Source of the DNA: an uncultured archaeon
GTDB taxonomy: Archaea; Asgardarchaeota; Lokiarchaeia; Sigyniarchaeales; SOKP01
Reading direction: 5' to 3'
DNA: 64,000 nt
Assembly (NCBI GenBank): GCA_964508365.1
Contig: CAZDTP010000006.1
Coordinates: 1 to 64,000, forward strand
In this document: positions 36,975 through 46,419 of the stretch, piece by piece
Layout of the letters: each line of letters opens with the position of its first letter
Numbering within the stretch: the stretch's first letter is position 1
Made by a program: the position numbers and the translations under genes
The notes under the pieces: model-generated
Databases searched by the model: none
Told to the model about the DNA's origin: nothing
The model's input: the letters and a program-made list of their open reading frames with translations, nothing else

Positions 36975-39900
36975 ATGGAGGGAAATGAAGAACTTGCTCA
37001 GGAAGCTTTAAGGTATCTCAATTTAGCTCAAAAATTTGAGAATGAAAAAAATTTTGAAAAAGCTGTGGAGAGTTATGATTTAGCAGCAACTTATCTTAAA
37101 AATAGTGGTTTTTTGATGGATAAAATAAGTGATATCTATTTTAGGATCGAAGAATTAAAAGATTTTACAAAACAAGAGATAACATATAATCAAGCAAGAG
37201 CAAAAAATCAACTTGAGCAATTACAAGAACAAGCTTTTTCTTTGTTGGATGGAGCTCAAAAATTAGAGATAGATGGATTTTTGGAAGACGCAATTGAACA
37301 ATATGAGGCAGCAATCAAATTATTAATTCAAACAGGTTGGTCTGAAGCTCAATTAAGCAATTTACAAAGCAAACTAATTACATTATCAGAAAATTTAAGA
37401 CACCATAAAGTAGTGACCAAAACCAAAATTGGGGAAGTTCAAGAACAAGATAATAGTCAGAAAGAAATTAAACCACAGGTTGTTAGCGCTTTTGGAGAAA
37501 AGAAAAGCACAGTAAAAGCTGAAGAATTAAAGAAGTTTAAAGAGATGAAACAGCAAGAGCAAGAAATACAAAACGACGCGTTTAAGTTTATTGATAATGC
37601 AAAATTTTTTGAAAACGATAAGAATTTCGATAAAGCAATCGAGAATTACGAAAACGCTGTAAAATTATTGAATTCTATAGGGTGGCACGACCAAACAAAG
37701 AATATCAACCTAGTTATTGAAAAATTAAAAAATGATAAAAAAGAGTTTGAACAATTTAGAACTCAGAAACAAATAGAACCTAAATTTAATAAAGAACAGA
37801 CTGATGAGTATGAAGGAATAAGGACACATATCTATAGAGATGAAGAGAAAATACAAATTGAAGCATTTAATTTAGTGGATTTTGGTAAAAAATTGGAAAG
37901 AGAGAAGAAATACGATCAAGCGGTTAATAAATTTCAGAAAGCAATTGAATTGTTTAAATCCATTGAATGGGATTCTTATATTCAACCAGTTATCAACTTT
38001 ATCAAAAATATCGAAAATAAACAGTCGCGGGAAGAAGAAGAAGTTATTTTAAGACAAAAAAGGGAGGACCAGCTAAAAAACCTACAAGATACGATATATT
38101 TTAAGGAAAAAGATGAAATTATTGAAACCGCAAAAGAACTGGATAAAAGAAGATTCGAATACGAACAAAAAAGAAAAGAAAATTTGAGGAAAGAAGAGAA
38201 CTTGTTTATAATTTTAGATGACGCGGATAGAATACTAAAAGAAGAATCTGATTATAACAAAGCAATTAATAGGTACACAGAAGCATTAGAATATCTAAAG
38301 GGATTAGGGCCAGATTGGGAATCGAATGCTTCTACAATTGAAGAGACTATTTTAAGTATTAAAAACTTAGAAGAATACAAAGTTGAAAAAGATTTAGAGC
38401 ACCAAACTAAATTAGAACTACGCAGAAAAAGTGATTTAGAATTTCAACAGCTCACCTCAATAGAGTTAGCAAAGGAAAGAGCAAAAATAAGGCAGAGAGA
38501 AAGCACTTTACAAGAAAAAATAGAAGAATCGGAACAACGCGAAAAGCGTAAAGCTGACGCGTATAAAGCTTTAGATAAAGCTGATTATTATATAAAAAAA
38601 TCGGAGTTAGATAAAGCAATTGCTGCTTATCAAAATGCGGGAAATATCTTCGCAAGTATACAATGGAACGACGAATTACATTTAATTGAAAATTCGATAA
38701 GAGAATTAGAAAATAGGAAAAGAGAACAATTATTAACAAAACAAAAAGAAATGATGAAATCTATTGAGAAATTTAAGGTTGAACAGCAGTTTCAGGAACA
38801 GATATCAAAACAACTCCGATTAGAAAGAGAGCAATTAAAAGAGAAAAAAATCTTATTAAGAGATCATAATGCAGAATTAATGCATCGAGAGAAGCGAAAA
38901 GATGAAGCCTTTAGGATATTGGAAAATGCTCATGTCTATCTTGAAAAAGGCAATTTTGATAAAGCAATTGAATTCTATCAGCAGGTAACTGGTATTTTTG
39001 CTGAAATTCAATGGTATGATGAAATGGAGAGGATAGGGAACGCTATAATCGAAATCGAAAATAAAAAACGTGATGTTAATCTCAAAAAACAAAGAGATAT
39101 GGAAATTCTTATCAAGAAAGAAAGAGAGGATAGAGAATTTCAAGAAAAAGTAATCAATGAGATGAACGCAAAGAGAAAAAAACTAGAAGAAAGAGAGATA
39201 GTTAAGAAAGAACGCGAAAATGAACTTAATTTTAGAGAAATGCAAAAGGAAAACGCGTTTAAAATCTTGGATGAAGCGCAAAACTATCTTTCTTTAGGAG
39301 AATTCGAGTTAGCAATTGAAAGCTATAGAAATGTAAATCAAATTTTTGCTCAAATTCAATGGATCGACGAAATTACATTTATTAACCAAACAATTAACAA
39401 AATCGAAAATGAAAAGAAGGAACAAGAAATAAGGAAACAAAGGGAGTTCGAGCAGTTAATCAAAGAAGATGCCGAACACAATCAATTTCTAAACAATTTA
39501 AAAATTCAAAGAGAAAGAGAAAAAAGATTAATCCAAAAAGAAAGGGATATTTTAGAAACAAAAAAGGAATTGAGTTCCCAGAACGCTTTAAAACAACAAG
39601 AAGCGTTCAAAATCATTGAGGAAGCTGATGAATTTTTAGCGAAAGAGAACTATGATGAAGCCATTGACTCATATCAAAATGCGCTTAAATCCCTCAAAGA
39701 CATAGGGTGGACGGGAAAATACATTTCATTGTTAGAAGAGTCAGTTCGAAATCTGCAATTTAAAAAGAACGAAAGAGAGCGCCAAAAATTACTCGAAAAA
39801 GAAAAACTACGAAAACAAGTAGAAGAAGAAAGAGAATTTGAGAGAATAGTGACAGAAAGTTTTCAAAAAGAAAGAGAAAAGATGCTATCTAAGAAGATCG

Positions 39901-41900
39901 AGCTTTTTAAAAAAGAAGATATGAAGAAATTAATGGAGACAAAGAAGATGGAAGCCTTTTCCATAATGGATAAGGCAGACCAACTATTAACAGAAGGGAA
40001 GTATGAAGAATCTATAGAAAATTATTATAAAGCAGAGTTAATCTTAATTCAGATTCAGTTTCCTATTGAAATAATAAAAGATACCATCATAAAAATTCAA
40101 GAAAAAAAACGGGAAGCCGACATATTAAAGCAACAAGAGTTAGAAAATGAAATTAGAAAACAAGAAAAAGAGAAACACTTTCTTCAGACTATTGCTGATA
40201 ACATGAAATACGAAGAAAAACAAATGAGAGTTAAACAAATTAAAATTAAAAAACAAGAAGACCTTAAATTACATTTGGAAAAACGCAAAGAAGCTGCTTT
40301 CGAATTGCTTGACGAAGCTGAATTATATATAAAGCGTGCAGATTACGATAAAGCATTAGAGTACTATCGAAGCGCGGAGTTAGTGCTAAATGAAATTAAC
40401 TACCCTACGAATTCGATTAAAGAGTCAATCGTTCAACTTAAAAAGAAGAAGAGAGTCCACGAATTCCAAAAACAAAAAGCACTTGAAAAAAAGCTTCAAA
40501 AAGAACGTGAGGAAATTGATTTTCAAAAGAGAGTCTCGCAAAATATCAGTAAAGAAAGAGAACGCTTAAAACTAAAAAAGATTGAAGATAAAAAATTAAT
40601 TTTAACACAAGCAATTATAGAAAGAAAAAAAGATGACGCTTTTAATATTTTAGATGAAGCTGAGCTACACATTAACAATTCTAACTTCGAATTAGCAATT
40701 ATGAGTTATAGGAAAGCTATGTTAATTCTTAATGAGATAAATTTTCCAACAGATTCCATTAGCGCTATGATCGTAAAGGCGGAAACGCTTAAAAAACAAA
40801 GAGAACAAGAAGAGGAGCTAAAGTTAAAAAGAGAATTAGAACGGCTGAAAGAGGAGAGGAATTTGGAAAATATCTTAAAGGAAAGAAGACGTCAAGAAAG
40901 AGAAAAGAAGAAAGCTCAGCAGATTGCAGCTAAACAAAGAGAAAGAATTATTCAAGACCAATTGACGTTTAGAGAAGCAGCATATTCTCTCTTAGAAGAT
41001 GGTGGAAAATATATTAAAATGAGCACTCCTGATTTCGATAAAGCAATATCTTTGTATATTCAAGCAAGAGATTTATTAGCTGAAAAAATAGGGTGGGAAC
41101 CCGAAATTACTAATTTAAACACTTTAATCAAGGATTTAATCCATGAAAAAGAACATTATTTAGAAAAGAAAAAAGCAGAAGAAGAAACTAACATTAAAAG
41201 ACAACAAGAATATGAACTTTTTCGCGAAGAGATGGAGAAACAACAAATGGAAACTGAACTTAGAAAAAGAGAACAACAAAAGAAATTTAAGAAGTTATAC
41301 GAAACTCAGAAACAAACTGAAAAAATAAGAGAAGAAGGATTAAAGCTTATAGATGAAGGGAAAGAATTAGCTACTAAATATGATTTTACGGCTGCATACA
41401 TGAAATTTAATACAGCGATTACTAAGTTTAAGGAAATTGGTTGGAGCGAACAAGCGAAATTTATTAAGAAAGAGATTGAGAATACGAGAGAATTTGAGCA
41501 AAATGTAATTGAAAGTGATCGGAAAATAAAAAGAATTCACCAAGAACTAGAAAACCAAAAGATAAAAGAAGATCGTAAAAAGAAACAAGAAGAACAAGAA
41601 ATTAAAAGCAAGATAAAAGAAGTGAGTGTTTTAGCAGGAGAAGTTTCAAACCTAATCAAAATTAAAAAAGAAAAAGAAGAGTTGCTGTCTCATCAAAGAA
41701 GAGAAATAGTTGTATCTAAATCTAAGGAATTCCGTAAGGACATGCAAAACTTATTAAATTTGAAGCAAGATTTAACACGGGAATTGTCTGAATCAAAAGC
41801 AGCATTAGAGAATAAGAAAAAAGAAGCTGAACTAGCAAAGGATAAAGAAAAGGCAGACGAAATAAAGAAAATGTTGAAGGATATATCAAAAAACAAATAA
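36975..41900 (+). CDS. 1641-aa protein of 14 MIT/TPR-like helical modules separated by E/K/R-rich helices
   Basis: Repeated A(F/Y)x(I/L)(L/I)(D/E)xAx(8-9)(F/Y)(D/E)xAIxxYxxAxxx(F/L)xxI(G/Q/N)(W/F/Y) motif, counted 14 times. Confidence 0.85.
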   Translation: MEGNEELAQEALRYLNLAQKFENEKNFEKAVESYDLAATYLKNSGFLMDKISDIYFRIEELKDFTKQEITYNQARAKNQLEQLQEQAFSLLDGAQKLEIDGFLEDAIEQYEAAIKLLIQTGWSEAQLSNLQSKLITLSENLRHHKVVTKTKIGEVQEQDNSQKEIKPQVVSAFGEKKSTVKAEELKKFKEMKQQEQEIQNDAFKFIDNAKFFENDKNFDKAIENYENAVKLLNSIGWHDQTKNINLVIEKLKNDKKEFEQFRTQKQIEPKFNKEQTDEYEGIRTHIYRDEEKIQIEAFNLVDFGKKLEREKKYDQAVNKFQKAIELFKSIEWDSYIQPVINFIKNIENKQSREEEEVILRQKREDQLKNLQDTIYFKEKDEIIETAKELDKRRFEYEQKRKENLRKEENLFIILDDADRILKEESDYNKAINRYTEALEYLKGLGPDWESNASTIEETILSIKNLEEYKVEKDLEHQTKLELRRKSDLEFQQLTSIELAKERAKIRQRESTLQEKIEESEQREKRKADAYKALDKADYYIKKSELDKAIAAYQNAGNIFASIQWNDELHLIENSIRELENRKREQLLTKQKEMMKSIEKFKVEQQFQEQISKQLRLEREQLKEKKILLRDHNAELMHREKRKDEAFRILENAHVYLEKGNFDKAIEFYQQVTGIFAEIQWYDEMERIGNAIIEIENKKRDVNLKKQRDMEILIKKEREDREFQEKVINEMNAKRKKLEEREIVKKERENELNFREMQKENAFKILDEAQNYLSLGEFELAIESYRNVNQIFAQIQWIDEITFINQTINKIENEKKEQEIRKQREFEQLIKEDAEHNQFLNNLKIQREREKRLIQKERDILETKKELSSQNALKQQEAFKIIEEADEFLAKENYDEAIDSYQNALKSLKDIGWTGKYISLLEESVRNLQFKKNERERQKLLEKEKLRKQVEEEREFERIVTESFQKEREKMLSKKIELFKKEDMKKLMETKKMEAFSIMDKADQLLTEGKYEESIENYYKAELILIQIQFPIEIIKDTIIKIQEKKREADILKQQELENEIRKQEKEKHFLQTIADNMKYEEKQMRVKQIKIKKQEDLKLHLEKRKEAAFELLDEAELYIKRADYDKALEYYRSAELVLNEINYPTNSIKESIVQLKKKKRVHEFQKQKALEKKLQKEREEIDFQKRVSQNISKERERLKLKKIEDKKLILTQAIIERKKDDAFNILDEAELHINNSNFELAIMSYRKAMLILNEINFPTDSISAMIVKAETLKKQREQEEELKLKRELERLKEERNLENILKERRRQEREKKKAQQIAAKQRERIIQDQLTFREAAYSLLEDGGKYIKMSTPDFDKAISLYIQARDLLAEKIGWEPEITNLNTLIKDLIHEKEHYLEKKKAEEETNIKRQQEYELFREEMEKQQMETELRKREQQKKFKKLYETQKQTEKIREEGLKLIDEGKELATKYDFTAAYMKFNTAITKFKEIGWSEQAKFIKKEIENTREFEQNVIESDRKIKRIHQELENQKIKEDRKKKQEEQEIKSKIKEVSVLAGEVSNLIKIKKEKEELLSHQRREIVVSKSKEFRKDMQNLLNLKQDLTRELSESKAALENKKKEAELAKDKEKADEIKKMLKDISKNK

Positions 41901-43522: not shown

Positions 43523-45100
43523 ATGACAGAAAACAAGGAAAATATCAAAAAATCCCGTATGTACGCCCGCCAACAATTAATTGACGGTTGGGATCAAGAA
43601 ATTGTAAGTAAAGGTTGTATTATGATTGTTGGTGTGGGAGCCTTAGGTTGCGAAATAGCAAAGGATTTTGCATTAATGGGTATTGGAAAATTAGTTTTAG
43701 TGGACCTTGACACCATTGAAACATCTAATTTGTCCCGTCAGATGTTATTCAAACCGGGGGATGAAGGTCGTCCTAAAGCAGAAGTCGCAGCTGAAAGACT
43801 TAAAGACATGAATCCTTTTTTGAAAGTCGATTTTTATTTTGAAAAACTCCAAAAATTACCAATGTCGGTGTACGAAGAATGCGATGTCATCATTGCCGCT
43901 TTAGATAACTTTAATGCAAGGTTAGATTTGAATAAGATTTGTCTTCGGATGAAAAAACCAATGGTAGAGGGAGGAACAGTAGGATTTGAAGGTCATGTAC
44001 AAATAGTCATTCCTAAAGATTCAGCACTCGAATATAAAAATAGAGAAATTGAAATCGAAAACATTGTAGAAACGAGAATGTGGGAATTTGATAATCCAGA
44101 GTACTTAGATGCACAAAAAGAAATCGAACAACTAGAATATTTGATAGAGCGGTTGAAGCAAGAGAAACTCGAACCATTTAGAAGGTTAGTAAGAAAACAG
44201 GTAGAAGCAGAATTTGATAACAAATATGCAGAGGATGTTTTGAATATAACGCCTTGTTACCGATGTTTAGTCCCGATTCCTCCTGCAGATGATAAGTTGA
44301 TTGCAGCGTGTACTTTAAAAGGGCTTCCAAGAAATAGAAACCATTGCGTTATAAAAGCTGAAGTCATTTTCGAAAAAGAATACGGTTTTAAACCTGATAT
44401 GAATGTTGATGACGATGTGGTAAAATTATTGGCTTTAGCTCAGAAAGAATTGGCAGAATTAAGGAACCGAGTTTTTAATGAAAATGTTCCTGAAGAAAAG
44501 TTAGAAACGCTTACGCCAGAAGAAATTAAAGAGTGGAAAGAAAATATTAAAGAGACTTTCGGAGAAGATTATAAATTTGAAGAAATGGAAAACATCTTAG
44601 GTAATAAAATTGCTGCTATTCAATCAGTAAGTTCTATAATTTCTAGCATTCAATCGCAAGAAGCCTTAAAATTGTTATTTCGATTACATGGAAGAAATAT
44701 TGGTCCACCTATGGATCCTCCTTATGTTAATTATAATGGCGTATATGGCCAATTTGATCATTTAGATATTATCAAACGAGAAGATTGTCTAGCGTGTGGA
44801 GATATTGAAGGTGAAGAAAATGTACAATTAGTCGTTCCTTTTGATGCCGATATAGGTTATATTTTCAAAGCTATGAGAATAATAGGTCATGCTTTAGAAC
44901 CCATTTTATGGATGATTACAAACCCTGTTAATAAAGAAATGTATTGGAATCCTTATATGAGCGGTGAATTTAAAGATCCAACTATAAAACTGACAACACT
45001 AAAAATAAAAAGCAACGATATAATAGCTCTCACTCCACTTGGAAAAGCAAAAGTAGAATCAGAAATTAAAAAATACAATGTGGTTATTACTTTCATGTAA
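43523..45100 (+). CDS. Ubiquitin-like-activating enzyme E1 (ThiF family, UBA3/UBA2-like)
   Basis: YARQ, VGVGALGC, DLDTIETSNLSRQ; Zn motifs PCYRC and DCLAC; catalytic-type Cys263 in IAACTLKGLPR. Confidence 0.9.
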   Translation: MTENKENIKKSRMYARQQLIDGWDQEIVSKGCIMIVGVGALGCEIAKDFALMGIGKLVLVDLDTIETSNLSRQMLFKPGDEGRPKAEVAAERLKDMNPFLKVDFYFEKLQKLPMSVYEECDVIIAALDNFNARLDLNKICLRMKKPMVEGGTVGFEGHVQIVIPKDSALEYKNREIEIENIVETRMWEFDNPEYLDAQKEIEQLEYLIERLKQEKLEPFRRLVRKQVEAEFDNKYAEDVLNITPCYRCLVPIPPADDKLIAACTLKGLPRNRNHCVIKAEVIFEKEYGFKPDMNVDDDVVKLLALAQKELAELRNRVFNENVPEEKLETLTPEEIKEWKENIKETFGEDYKFEEMENILGNKIAAIQSVSSIISSIQSQEALKLLFRLHGRNIGPPMDPPYVNYNGVYGQFDHLDIIKREDCLACGDIEGEENVQLVVPFDADIGYIFKAMRIIGHALEPILWMITNPVNKEMYWNPYMSGEFKDPTIKLTTLKIKSNDIIALTPLGKAKVESEIKKYNVVITFM

Positions 45101-45909: not shown

Positions 45910-46419
45910 CTAATCCATGGCATATTTAGCAGTCCATGACTTAGCTTTTGCTTCAAACTTCTTTTGAGCTCTGAAATATTGCTCGCCCGCCTCGTGGTTA
46001 AGAGGGTCTCCTGGGTTAAAGAAGGGAGGTTCAACATGCATCATACCTTTTAAGGCTTCTGTGATATTAGTTAAGGTTTTTGAAGGTGTCCACCCAGATG
46101 CACCAGTTGAAGCGTCTACCTTGCCAACAAGGTCAGGATTAATCAGATCTAAACATATATTAAGTTTTCCTGGAGGAATGCTGCTATCTATATTAGGGTG
46201 CCACATTAATGTAACTGCGTATGCGTATGGAGGAGCAAATGGATAATTTTCAGGGAATTTGATTTCGAATATGAACTTTCCTTTTCCGTAGGGAGTTCCT
46301 TCCTTTCCTATTATTGTAAGTCGAAGGTGATCGATACTGCGCCCCCATGGTTCGATGATGACATTAGGATCATCCTTGTACGCTTCAATAGCTTCCGTAT
46401 AATCGGTTTCTTCTCGCAT
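45910..46419 (-). CDS. Ubiquitin-conjugating enzyme E2 (UBC fold)
   Basis: GTPY..G.F, FPENYPFAPP, WHPN, catalytic Cys89 (NICLDLI), WTP, PGDPLNHEAG. Confidence 0.93.
   Translation of the reverse strand: MREETDYTEAIEAYKDDPNVIIEPWGRSIDHLRLTIIGKEGTPYGKGKFIFEIKFPENYPFAPPYAYAVTLMWHPNIDSSIPPGKLNICLDLINPDLVGKVDASTGASGWTPSKTLTNITEALKGMMHVEPPFFNPGDPLNHEAGEQYFRAQKKFEAKAKSWTAKYAMD

Follow-up and report, generated by a model that had tools for sequence, protein, structure and literature searches.

A Lokiarchaeial ThiF-family protein with the domain plan of a ubiquitin-type E1 and two helical insertions

Does an Asgard archaeal protein that is publicly labelled as a ThiF-family adenylyltransferase act as an activating enzyme (E1) that hands a ubiquitin-like protein (Ubl) over to a conjugating enzyme (E2), and does it work with a partner subunit or with a copy of itself? 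This question is raised by a gene in the window analyzed here, a 64,000-nucleotide stretch of DNA (positions 1 to 64,000, forward strand, contig CAZDTP010000006.1 of assembly GCA_964508365.1) from an uncultured archaeon of the Lokiarchaeia (Sigyniarchaeales; SOKP01). Translation of 43523-45100 on the plus strand gives 525 codons uninterrupted by stops. Relatives of the product, P0001, occupy more than 120 database clusters annotated as Lokiarchaeota/Promethearchaeota proteins, with 74-93% identity over the full length and sizes of 515-532 amino acids (aa) throughout; P0001 is therefore a real gene and no chance open reading frame (ORF). The public names of these relatives are "ThiF family adenylyltransferase" and "molybdopterin/thiamine biosynthesis adenylyltransferase". 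Since the evidence below points to an E2-coupled E1, this label is probably wrong for the P0001 family. We consider it very probable that P0001 is the E1 of a Ubl, and fairly likely that it is both E2-coupled and homodimeric. In hand are sequence motifs, folds, distribution and gene linkage, from which we infer that the protein is catalytic and dimeric, what the insertion does and which protein serves as modifier. The parts of the gene are as follows.

43523..45100, plus strand: E1 gene P0001, 525 aa, stop codon included (ORF; Pfam ThiF, 5.9e-57)
43523..44017, plus strand: adenylation domain, N-terminal part, residues 1-165 (conserved columns; MoeB/ThiF superposition)
44018..44248, plus strand: insertion 1, residues 166-242 (charged helices 174-186 and 192-234; predicted antiparallel inter-protomer coiled coil)
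44249..44347, plus strand: crossover segment, residues 243-275 (first zinc CxxC C245/C248, C263 and H274/C275)
44309-44311, plus strand: codon of the catalytic-type C263, within the crossover segment
44348..44617, plus strand: helical catalytic-Cys domain, residues 276-365 (modelled helices; contains insertion 2)
44459-44557, plus strand: insertion 2, residues 313-345, about 30 aa, within the Cys domain (length comparison)
44618..44800, plus strand: adenylation domain, C-terminal part, residues 366-426 (second zinc CxxC C422/C425; core dimer-interface residues)
44801..45097, plus strand: C-terminal ubiquitin-fold domain, residues 427-525 (isolated-domain fold search)

Motifs located by script are GVGALGCE at position 37, VIP at 162-164, TPCYRC at 243 (C245 and C248), IAACTLKG at 260 (C263), NRNHC with C275, and REDCLAC at 419 (C422 and C425). 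The N-terminal adenylation part bears R16 and an ATP/Mg site made up of G37, G39, G42, E44, D61, D63, N69, R72, Q73, K85, D128, R133 and N137, and all of these columns are invariant or near-invariant in the family alignments. Among 63 aligned E1-like sequences, G37, G39, G42, D61, D63, N69, K85, D128, R133 and the catalytic-type C263 are invariant, and R72, C245, C248 and C422 are at least 90% conserved; C425 is invariant in a 16-sequence alignment. P0001 has the traits of the E1-like superfamily (Rossmann-type adenylation domain, GxGxxG ATP motif, Arg finger and Mg-binding Asp) and a predicted four-Cys zinc site, C245/C248/C422/C425. Its most conserved region across 122 clade members is the crossover segment 243-275 (entropy 0.09), which aligns weakly, in a PDB sequence search, with the PLCTL...H segment of yeast Uba1 that we take to hold the catalytic Cys600. 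The AlphaFold2 model, built from the 63-sequence alignment (mean predicted local distance difference test (pLDDT) score 83.4), places Cys-domain helices at 272-287, 296-321, 332-346 and 352-360 with pLDDT of about 79-96. Motifs and model together indicate the arrangement of canonical E1s, in which the crossover loop holds an inserted helical domain that begins with a catalytic-type Cys.

These results agree with much of a first-pass annotation made from the DNA letters. It had placed a catalytic-type Cys, Cys263, after the first CxxC and a helical domain behind it (the modelled helical segment covers 272-360), and it had pointed to a second CxxC (REDCLAC), a charged helical insertion of about 75 aa between VIP and TPCYRC (78 aa by count, modelled as helices) and a beta-rich C-terminal domain of about 90 aa, which we find to be 99 aa (427-525) of mixed strands and helices with a ubiquitin-fold match.

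Because Pfam recognizes ThiF alone in the whole of P0001, the additional domains were judged by fold. The last 99 residues, folded alone, reached a pLDDT of 90.6. In a search of 48,161 chains that was independent of Foldseek, the seven best matches to this domain were all E1 ubiquitin-fold domains: UBA3 scored Z 10.1 (rmsd, root-mean-square deviation, 2.9 over 90 residues), SAE2 9.6 and plant SAE2 8.5, with human, yeast and plant SAE2/UBA2 spanning Z 8.5-9.6 and ubiquitin-containing chains reaching 7.8 at most. Foldseek on the isolated domain again returned E1 ubiquitin-fold domain families, with UBA6 as best matches, and the sequence profile of the domain gave weak matches to UBL domains. The predicted structure thus has the fold of E2-binding E1 ubiquitin-fold domains, and the beta-grasp that the first-pass annotation expected here, and on whose presence it had made its proposal depend, was found.

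For the whole chain, sequence and fold single out different relatives. The PDB sequence search ranked the active adenylation domains of UBA1 first (2.8e-38), then UBA7 and UBA6, with UBA3 and SAE2 at about 6e-29 and MoeB at 8e-24. Foldseek placed UBA3 first (2nvu_B, E 4.7e-27), followed by UBA6, SAE2 and UBA1. With VIA-align, the core superposed on MoeB and ThiF at Z 31-32 (rmsd 1.6-1.9 A, 230-235 residues), while UBA3 and SAE2 aligned 366-383 residues across model residues 4-525 at Z of about 29.4 and rmsd 7-11 A (UBA3: Z 29.4-29.5, rmsd 8.6-11.2 A); these high rmsd values indicate that the domains of the model are oriented otherwise than in UBA3 and SAE2. Hence, of the UBA3/UBA2/UBA1-type architecture suggested at first, the domain plan stands and UBA3 is the top fold match, but the sequence lies nearest to the active adenylation domain of UBA1.

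Comparison with known E1s makes these relationships more precise. UBA3 (PDB 2NVU, 3GZN and 1TT5), the best whole-chain structural match (18-28% identity over the structural alignment), has in common with P0001 the four-Cys zinc site, a small Cys domain and a C-terminal beta-grasp domain. It lacks a counterpart of insertion 1 and needs APPBP1, whereas P0001 keeps its own Arg finger and no partner was found; moreover, unlike those of UBA3, the Ubl and E2 associated with P0001 are ubiquitin-like and not NEDD8- or Ubc12-like. UBA1, UBA6 and UBA7 provide the strongest sequence similarity through their active adenylation domain, but P0001 has no inactive adenylation domain, no FCCH and no four-helix bundle, and its Cys domain is about 100 aa long, whereas the SCCH of UBA1 is far larger. 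MoeB and ThiF share the core fold, the four-Cys zinc site and the predicted symmetric homodimer with an Arg acting in trans, but neither has a catalytic Cys domain, a ubiquitin-fold domain or an E2 partner. Among prokaryotic E1s, BilD of the bacterial Bil system likewise has a four-Cys zinc site and carries its Cys domain within the crossover loop; however, BilD comes from a defence operon and is a pseudo-dimer of inactive and active adenylation domains (IAD-AAD) with no ubiquitin-fold domain (bioRxiv 10.1101/2023.09.26.559546), whereas P0001, a core gene conserved in its order, combines one adenylation domain with a ubiquitin-fold domain.

The closest known systems are archaeal. The element order of P0001, with the ACTLxGxPRxxxHC motif, the second CxxC and the C-terminal domain, recurs in about 26 representative E1-likes from archaea (388-458 aa, most 410-420), among them the 411-aa E1 of this same genome, and the UBA3-like plan is already known in archaea: the Caldiarchaeum E1-like protein was modelled on the NEDD8 E1, with Cys domain, zinc and C-terminal UBL, and its cascade was reconstituted (Hennell James et al., PMC5654768), as was a Helarchaeial ubiquitin cascade (bioRxiv 10.1101/2023.07.25.550441). 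These E1-likes of the Ub-E1-E2-(srfp) operons of Caldiarchaeum and Helarchaeia (about 410-420 aa), for which E1-E2-E3 cascades have been shown in vitro, have the same domain order as P0001, which by sequence appears to belong among such E1-likes with a Cys domain and a C-terminal UBL. P0001 differs in adding two helical insertions (78 and about 30 aa), found in one order only, and in lying outside a Ubl/RING operon while residing in one genome with an operon-type 411-aa E1. P0001 is not part of an operon that also encodes ubiquitin, an E2 and a small RING protein; the E2 alone is nearby, and the candidate Ubl is on another contig.

In a tree of 72 rows (quick method, unrooted, eukaryotic UBA3 and UBA2 not included), the 525-aa type, the 51%-identical P0122 and a tandem form described below were grouped (support 99) as sister to the 415-aa P0124 (support 96), and all of them fell inside a 26-row archaeal E1-like group with a modest Shimodaira-Hasegawa-like approximate likelihood ratio test (SH-aLRT) value of 81; UBA1-like sequences formed a separate long branch. 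By this nesting, P0001 is a derived twig among archaeal E1-likes and holds no privileged place as a NEDD8/SUMO ancestor. The first-pass annotation had taken it for a homodimeric precursor of NEDD8/SUMO-type E1s. The precursor part, tested against UBA1-like sequences alone as the tree holds no UBA3 or UBA2, did not hold: P0001 belongs to a derived branch nested among E1-likes of about 415 aa that share its architecture. Nor did the leaning towards NEDD8/SUMO, because the sequence is nearest to UBA1 rather than UBA3/SAE2, and the likely modifier and E2 are ubiquitin-like.

Across 201 genomes sampled from the phylum, full-length matches to P0001 occur in two families of one order (63-100% identity in its own family, 51-55% in the second), and matches in the other families are limited to the adenylation domain. 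The stretch from VIP to TPCYRC (165-242) that holds insertion 1 is 78 aa long, 43% charged and of net charge -9, and insertion 1 measures 78-91 aa in the P0001 clade versus 2-17 aa in 49 other E1-likes. The Cys-domain stretch around insertion 2 is 47 aa in the clade versus about 15 aa (0-23) in the other aligned E1-likes. Among the sampled genomes both insertions are confined to the one order, and both are new. Insertion 2 had gone unmentioned in the first-pass annotation. Within insertion 1, 122 clade members keep a near-invariant stripe of Y194, A197, I201, L204, E205 and I208. The positions that form a seam in the dimer model presented below are conserved in at least 98% of them at Y194, A197, I201, L204 and I208 and in 78% at L211; the six core seam positions average 0.96 in conservation versus 0.66 at non-seam helix positions, and only 12 of 20,000 random six-position draws attain 0.96. 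P0122 keeps these residues with one conservative change, Leu to Ile, at 211.

As a separate observation on the family, full-length matches with 73-74% identity in all four genomes of genus g3 are reported with two stop codons in the matched span, which may lie at the match edges or interrupt the gene. They are located as follows (strand not given).

G019:C52:6396-8012: g3 match to P0001, two stops in span
G030:C178:453-2057: g3 match to P0001, two stops in span
G113:C712:151-1758: g3 match to P0001, two stops in span
G156:C108:8382-9977: g3 match to P0001, two stops in span

With which subunit would such an enzyme work? Canonical E1s pair the active adenylation domain with an inactive one, separate or fused, whereas P0001 has a single adenylation domain without such pairing. 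It retains both R16, which stands where MoeB has its trans-acting Arg, and the complete active site, a combination in one chain that is expected of a symmetric homodimer. A search of the genome for a degenerate or inactive partner subunit, with the inactive half of a tandem relative as bait, found none and returned just the five known ThiF-family proteins, namely P0001 and the proteins of 411, 296, 290 and 246 aa (the last MoeB-like), with P0001 itself as the best match. For complex prediction, two copies of residues 1-430 were modelled with an alignment, giving a score of 0.52 (runs 0.51, 0.57 and 0.52) against 0.00 for the best control; of proteins with solved structures, 20 of 30 one-chain pairs and 1 of 23 single chains attained the mark of 0.52. 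The runs agreed in at least 52% of contacts, with partner pLDDT of at least 72. One part of the interface consists of the adenylation-domain surfaces 9-20, 44-53, 67-78 and 366-413, which we take to be the MoeB/ThiF-type dimer face. The other runs through residues 174-235 with 3-4 spacing in an a/d heptad pattern, and its lowest-error inter-chain pairs (201:208, 204:204 and 194:216) describe a predicted antiparallel coiled coil centred on L204. No counterpart of this element is known to us from a solved E1.

The homodimer put forward in the first-pass annotation is plausible on these grounds (no degenerate partner in the genome, R16 and active site kept, two-copy model passing its controls), and we judge it likely that P0001 works in this form. 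Whether insertion 1 is a coiled coil that adds a dimer contact is, on the model, an evenly balanced matter. The further idea that the insertion replaces functions of the eukaryotic partner subunit survives only as this predicted additional contact, and is otherwise overstated, because close relatives lack the insertion and the Arg finger is supplied without it.

A different solution appears in the sister lineage, where tandem E1s of 730-878 aa (at least 20 clusters, assigned in public records to Sigynarchaeota or Lokiarchaeia), which count among the nearest relatives free of the insertion, combine two adenylation domains with Cys and C-terminal domains. The representative is located as follows.

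L014:1291-3693, strand not given: tandem E1 P0123, with a ubiquitin gene directly upstream; relatives P0272-P0290

In 20 of 20 tandem sequences the N-terminal half keeps R16 and has lost D63, S68, Q73 and D128 (now N), and N69 and R72 are lost in most of them; in the C-terminal half all active-site residues are retained, but R16 is missing from 19 of the 20. The two halves of UBA1 and the pairs APPBP1-UBA3 and SAE1-SAE2 divide the work in the same complementary way, and the tandem E1s, read from their residues, would be a UBA1-like pseudo-heterodimer in an archaeon, nearer than P0001 to the UBA1 plan. Their inactive half is most similar (37%) to the adenylation domain of P0001 itself and not to the other paralogues of the genome. 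No description of archaeal tandem E1s was found in the literature searched.

Candidate partners of P0001 come from gene linkage and distribution, and their locations, with that of one upstream neighbour, are given here.

45910..46419, minus strand: partner E2, 169 aa, with an HPN...C motif (Pfam UQ_con, 2.3e-25)
G000:C1:58412-58660 (L023:8412-8660), minus strand: GG-ended Ubl, 83 aa, the most ubiquitin-like; candidate substrate
36975..41900, plus strand: MIT/TPR-repeat giant, 1641 aa (Pfam MIT, 3e-20); upstream neighbour, context only

In the window, a HAD hydrolase gene separates the E2 gene from the convergent E1 gene. The two genes are convergent on one contig, 0.7-11 kb apart, in 18 genomes of this family, and the complete genome CP070831 shows the pair as well. 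Orthologues of this E2 across the order are 69-78% identical, and its closest solved relatives are the ubiquitin E2s Ubc1, Ubc4 and UBE2D. A 76%-identical genome keeps the gene order RACo, MIT-repeat giant, E1, E2; in CP070831, a 2119-aa MIT/TPR counterpart (L015:1495-7854) follows that same RACo gene and stands directly upstream of the orthologous E1. No E2 or Ubl was found within 8 kb of P0122 and the insertion-less P0124 on their contigs.

The genome has four ubiquitin-like genes, of which three paralogues end in AG and a short tail and one ends exactly in GG. The product of the latter bears the closest likeness to ubiquitin, is 74-95% identical across the order and shares 86% identity with the ubiquitin gene that precedes the tandem E1 P0123 directly upstream. 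Its distribution is that of P0001: it is present in 33 of 40 genomes of family f1 and 3 of 3 of family f2, and in none of the 157 genomes of the other 25 families. In genome G209 it and a paralogue of the E2 (68% identity) belong to a single co-directional cluster, while in the present genome no ubiquitin-system gene was found in its neighbourhood, and the Ubl contigs of G203 and G202 are too short to reveal an E1. We think it rather probable that the GG-ended Ubl is the substrate of P0001. A triad of GG-ended Ubl, 525-aa E1 and 169-aa E2 is proposed by inference from pairwise linkages in different lineages and one common phyletic pattern.

Several side observations concern this Ubl and the loci L027-L031. 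Its gene has no in-frame ATG, GTG or TTG in the present genome; where orthologues have ATG, it has ACG and five genomes of genus g2 have ATT, each a few codons past an in-frame stop, which suggests a conserved near-cognate start codon. Some orthologues bear one residue (I, V or C) past the GG. Between the Ubl and the E2 paralogue of G209, a 379-aa protein is encoded on the same strand (G209:C630, L024:807-1946); its last approximately 90 residues are a second Ubl copy, ending in SAG and a tail, and it may be a Ubl-fused substrate or adaptor.

Two other sets of related genes are present in the genome. An operon on G000:C3 (L002) encodes a Ubl (111 aa), the 411-aa E1 and an E2 of 175 aa, with two further Ubl paralogues elsewhere (the set as a whole: L002 and L007-L009). 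The three AG-type Ubls have acidic N-terminal tails and 2-6 extra residues after the AG, so that they would need processing. A third E1-E2 set (G000:C31, L004:884-2944) consists of a JAB/MPN peptidase (167 aa), the 296-aa ThiF protein and a 188-aa protein with a weak UQ_con match, all co-directional, and resembles bacterial-type E1-E2-JAB operons. A defence-system reading of P0001 was set aside, since its E1, E2 and Ubl are conserved core genes with stable synteny in the order; the JAB-E1-E2-like operon is a better candidate for a bacterial-type system.

Taken together, a mechanism may be proposed in which the adenylation domain of P0001 would adenylate the C-terminal Gly of a ubiquitin-like protein, Cys263 of the mobile helical domain, which is inserted in the crossover loop, would accept the modifier as a thioester, and the modifier would be handed to the E2. 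Unlike the E1s of eukaryotes, the enzyme would form a homodimer that is symmetric and has both active sites complete; each protomer would lend R16 to the ATP site of the other, and insertion 1, paired with its twin across the two-fold axis, would clamp the dimer further at the point from which the moving parts extend.

Several points weigh against this proposal. The Pfam scan of P0001 detected none of the E2_bind, UAE_UbL, E1_UFD and SCCH families. The phyletic match between P0001 and the GG-ended Ubl counts as a single observation, since one lineage is involved; in this genome the Ubl gene shows no linkage to the E1, the MoeB-like ThiF is 8 kb away from it, and three further Ubl paralogues are present. 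The predicted contacts between adenylation surfaces may stem from model memory, given their likeness to solved MoeB/ThiF dimers. Insertion 1 is the most variable region of P0001 (entropy 1.23 versus 0.41 in the core, 122 clade members) and has low confidence in the monomer model (pLDDT 42-72), so that its shape there says little, and conserved hydrophobics on an amphipathic helix could equally pack on another protein or within the same chain.

It may therefore be asked whether the E1 and its dimer are real while insertion 1 is something other than a clamp, namely an exposed arm on which another factor would dock (an E3-like adaptor, a substrate or the MIT-repeat giant conserved upstream) or a regulator of crossover-loop and Cys-domain movement. 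Its high charge, its variability and its low confidence in the monomer model would suit such a part, as would its position directly before the crossover loop, which is remodelled during thioester formation in canonical E1s, and the conserved order of the RACo, MIT-repeat giant, E1 and E2 genes. However, neighbouring genes alone are weak evidence, and the lowest-error contacts of the two-copy model run between the two insertion helices and sit on invariant a/d positions; we consider the docking arm or regulator unlikely. A partner of another kind could be one of the other ThiF paralogues (411, 296, 290 or 246 aa), standing in for APPBP1 or SAE1. Heterodimerization has some appeal, because the genome holds five ThiF-family genes, the eukaryotic relatives are heterodimeric and the sister lineage evolved an inactive-plus-active tandem enzyme. 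Yet the inactive half of that tandem is nearest to the adenylation domain of P0001 itself, the 411- and 296-aa paralogues belong to E1-E2 operons of their own, P0001 keeps R16 and the full active site, and the homodimer model passes its controls, all of which makes a heterodimer highly improbable.

A sulfur-carrier or cofactor adenylyltransferase of the MoeB/ThiF kind, feeding no E2, would be in keeping with ThiF as the single Pfam match, with the public molybdopterin/thiamine name of the relatives and with the core superposing best on MoeB and ThiF. On the other hand, the 525-aa chain with its conserved Cys and ubiquitin-fold domains goes well beyond the minimal MoeB/ThiF architecture of about 250 aa, an E2 is a conserved neighbour, the genome holds a separate 246-aa MoeB-like ThiF, and similarity to UBA1 exceeds that to MoeB. 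We regard this role as extremely unlikely.

Among the unsolved problems in the origin of ubiquitin signalling is how MoeB-like symmetric dimers gave rise to the E1s of eukaryotes, which are asymmetric and multidomain. P0001 combines the full catalytic module, with adenylation, Cys and ubiquitin-fold domains, with what still looks like the symmetry of a homodimer. One archaeal order appears to have modified this dimer with a predicted helical clamp of its own, and its closest relatives fused an inactivated copy, as in UBA1. It is quite possible, although somewhat short of probable, that Lokiarchaeales have a second, dispersed ubiquitin system (GG-ended Ubl, 525-aa E1 and E2) beside the operon-type one, and that this clade holds both solutions to dimerization side by side, the coiled-coil-locked homodimer of P0001 and the fused inactive-plus-active tandem of the sister lineage. 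The 525-aa and tandem E1s would allow tests of what asymmetry is good for, of cross-talk between two active sites and of which Ubl each archaeal E1 chooses. If true, this would offer, in Asgard archaea, a living and testable replay of the step from homodimer to pseudo-heterodimer that created the eukaryotic E1s.

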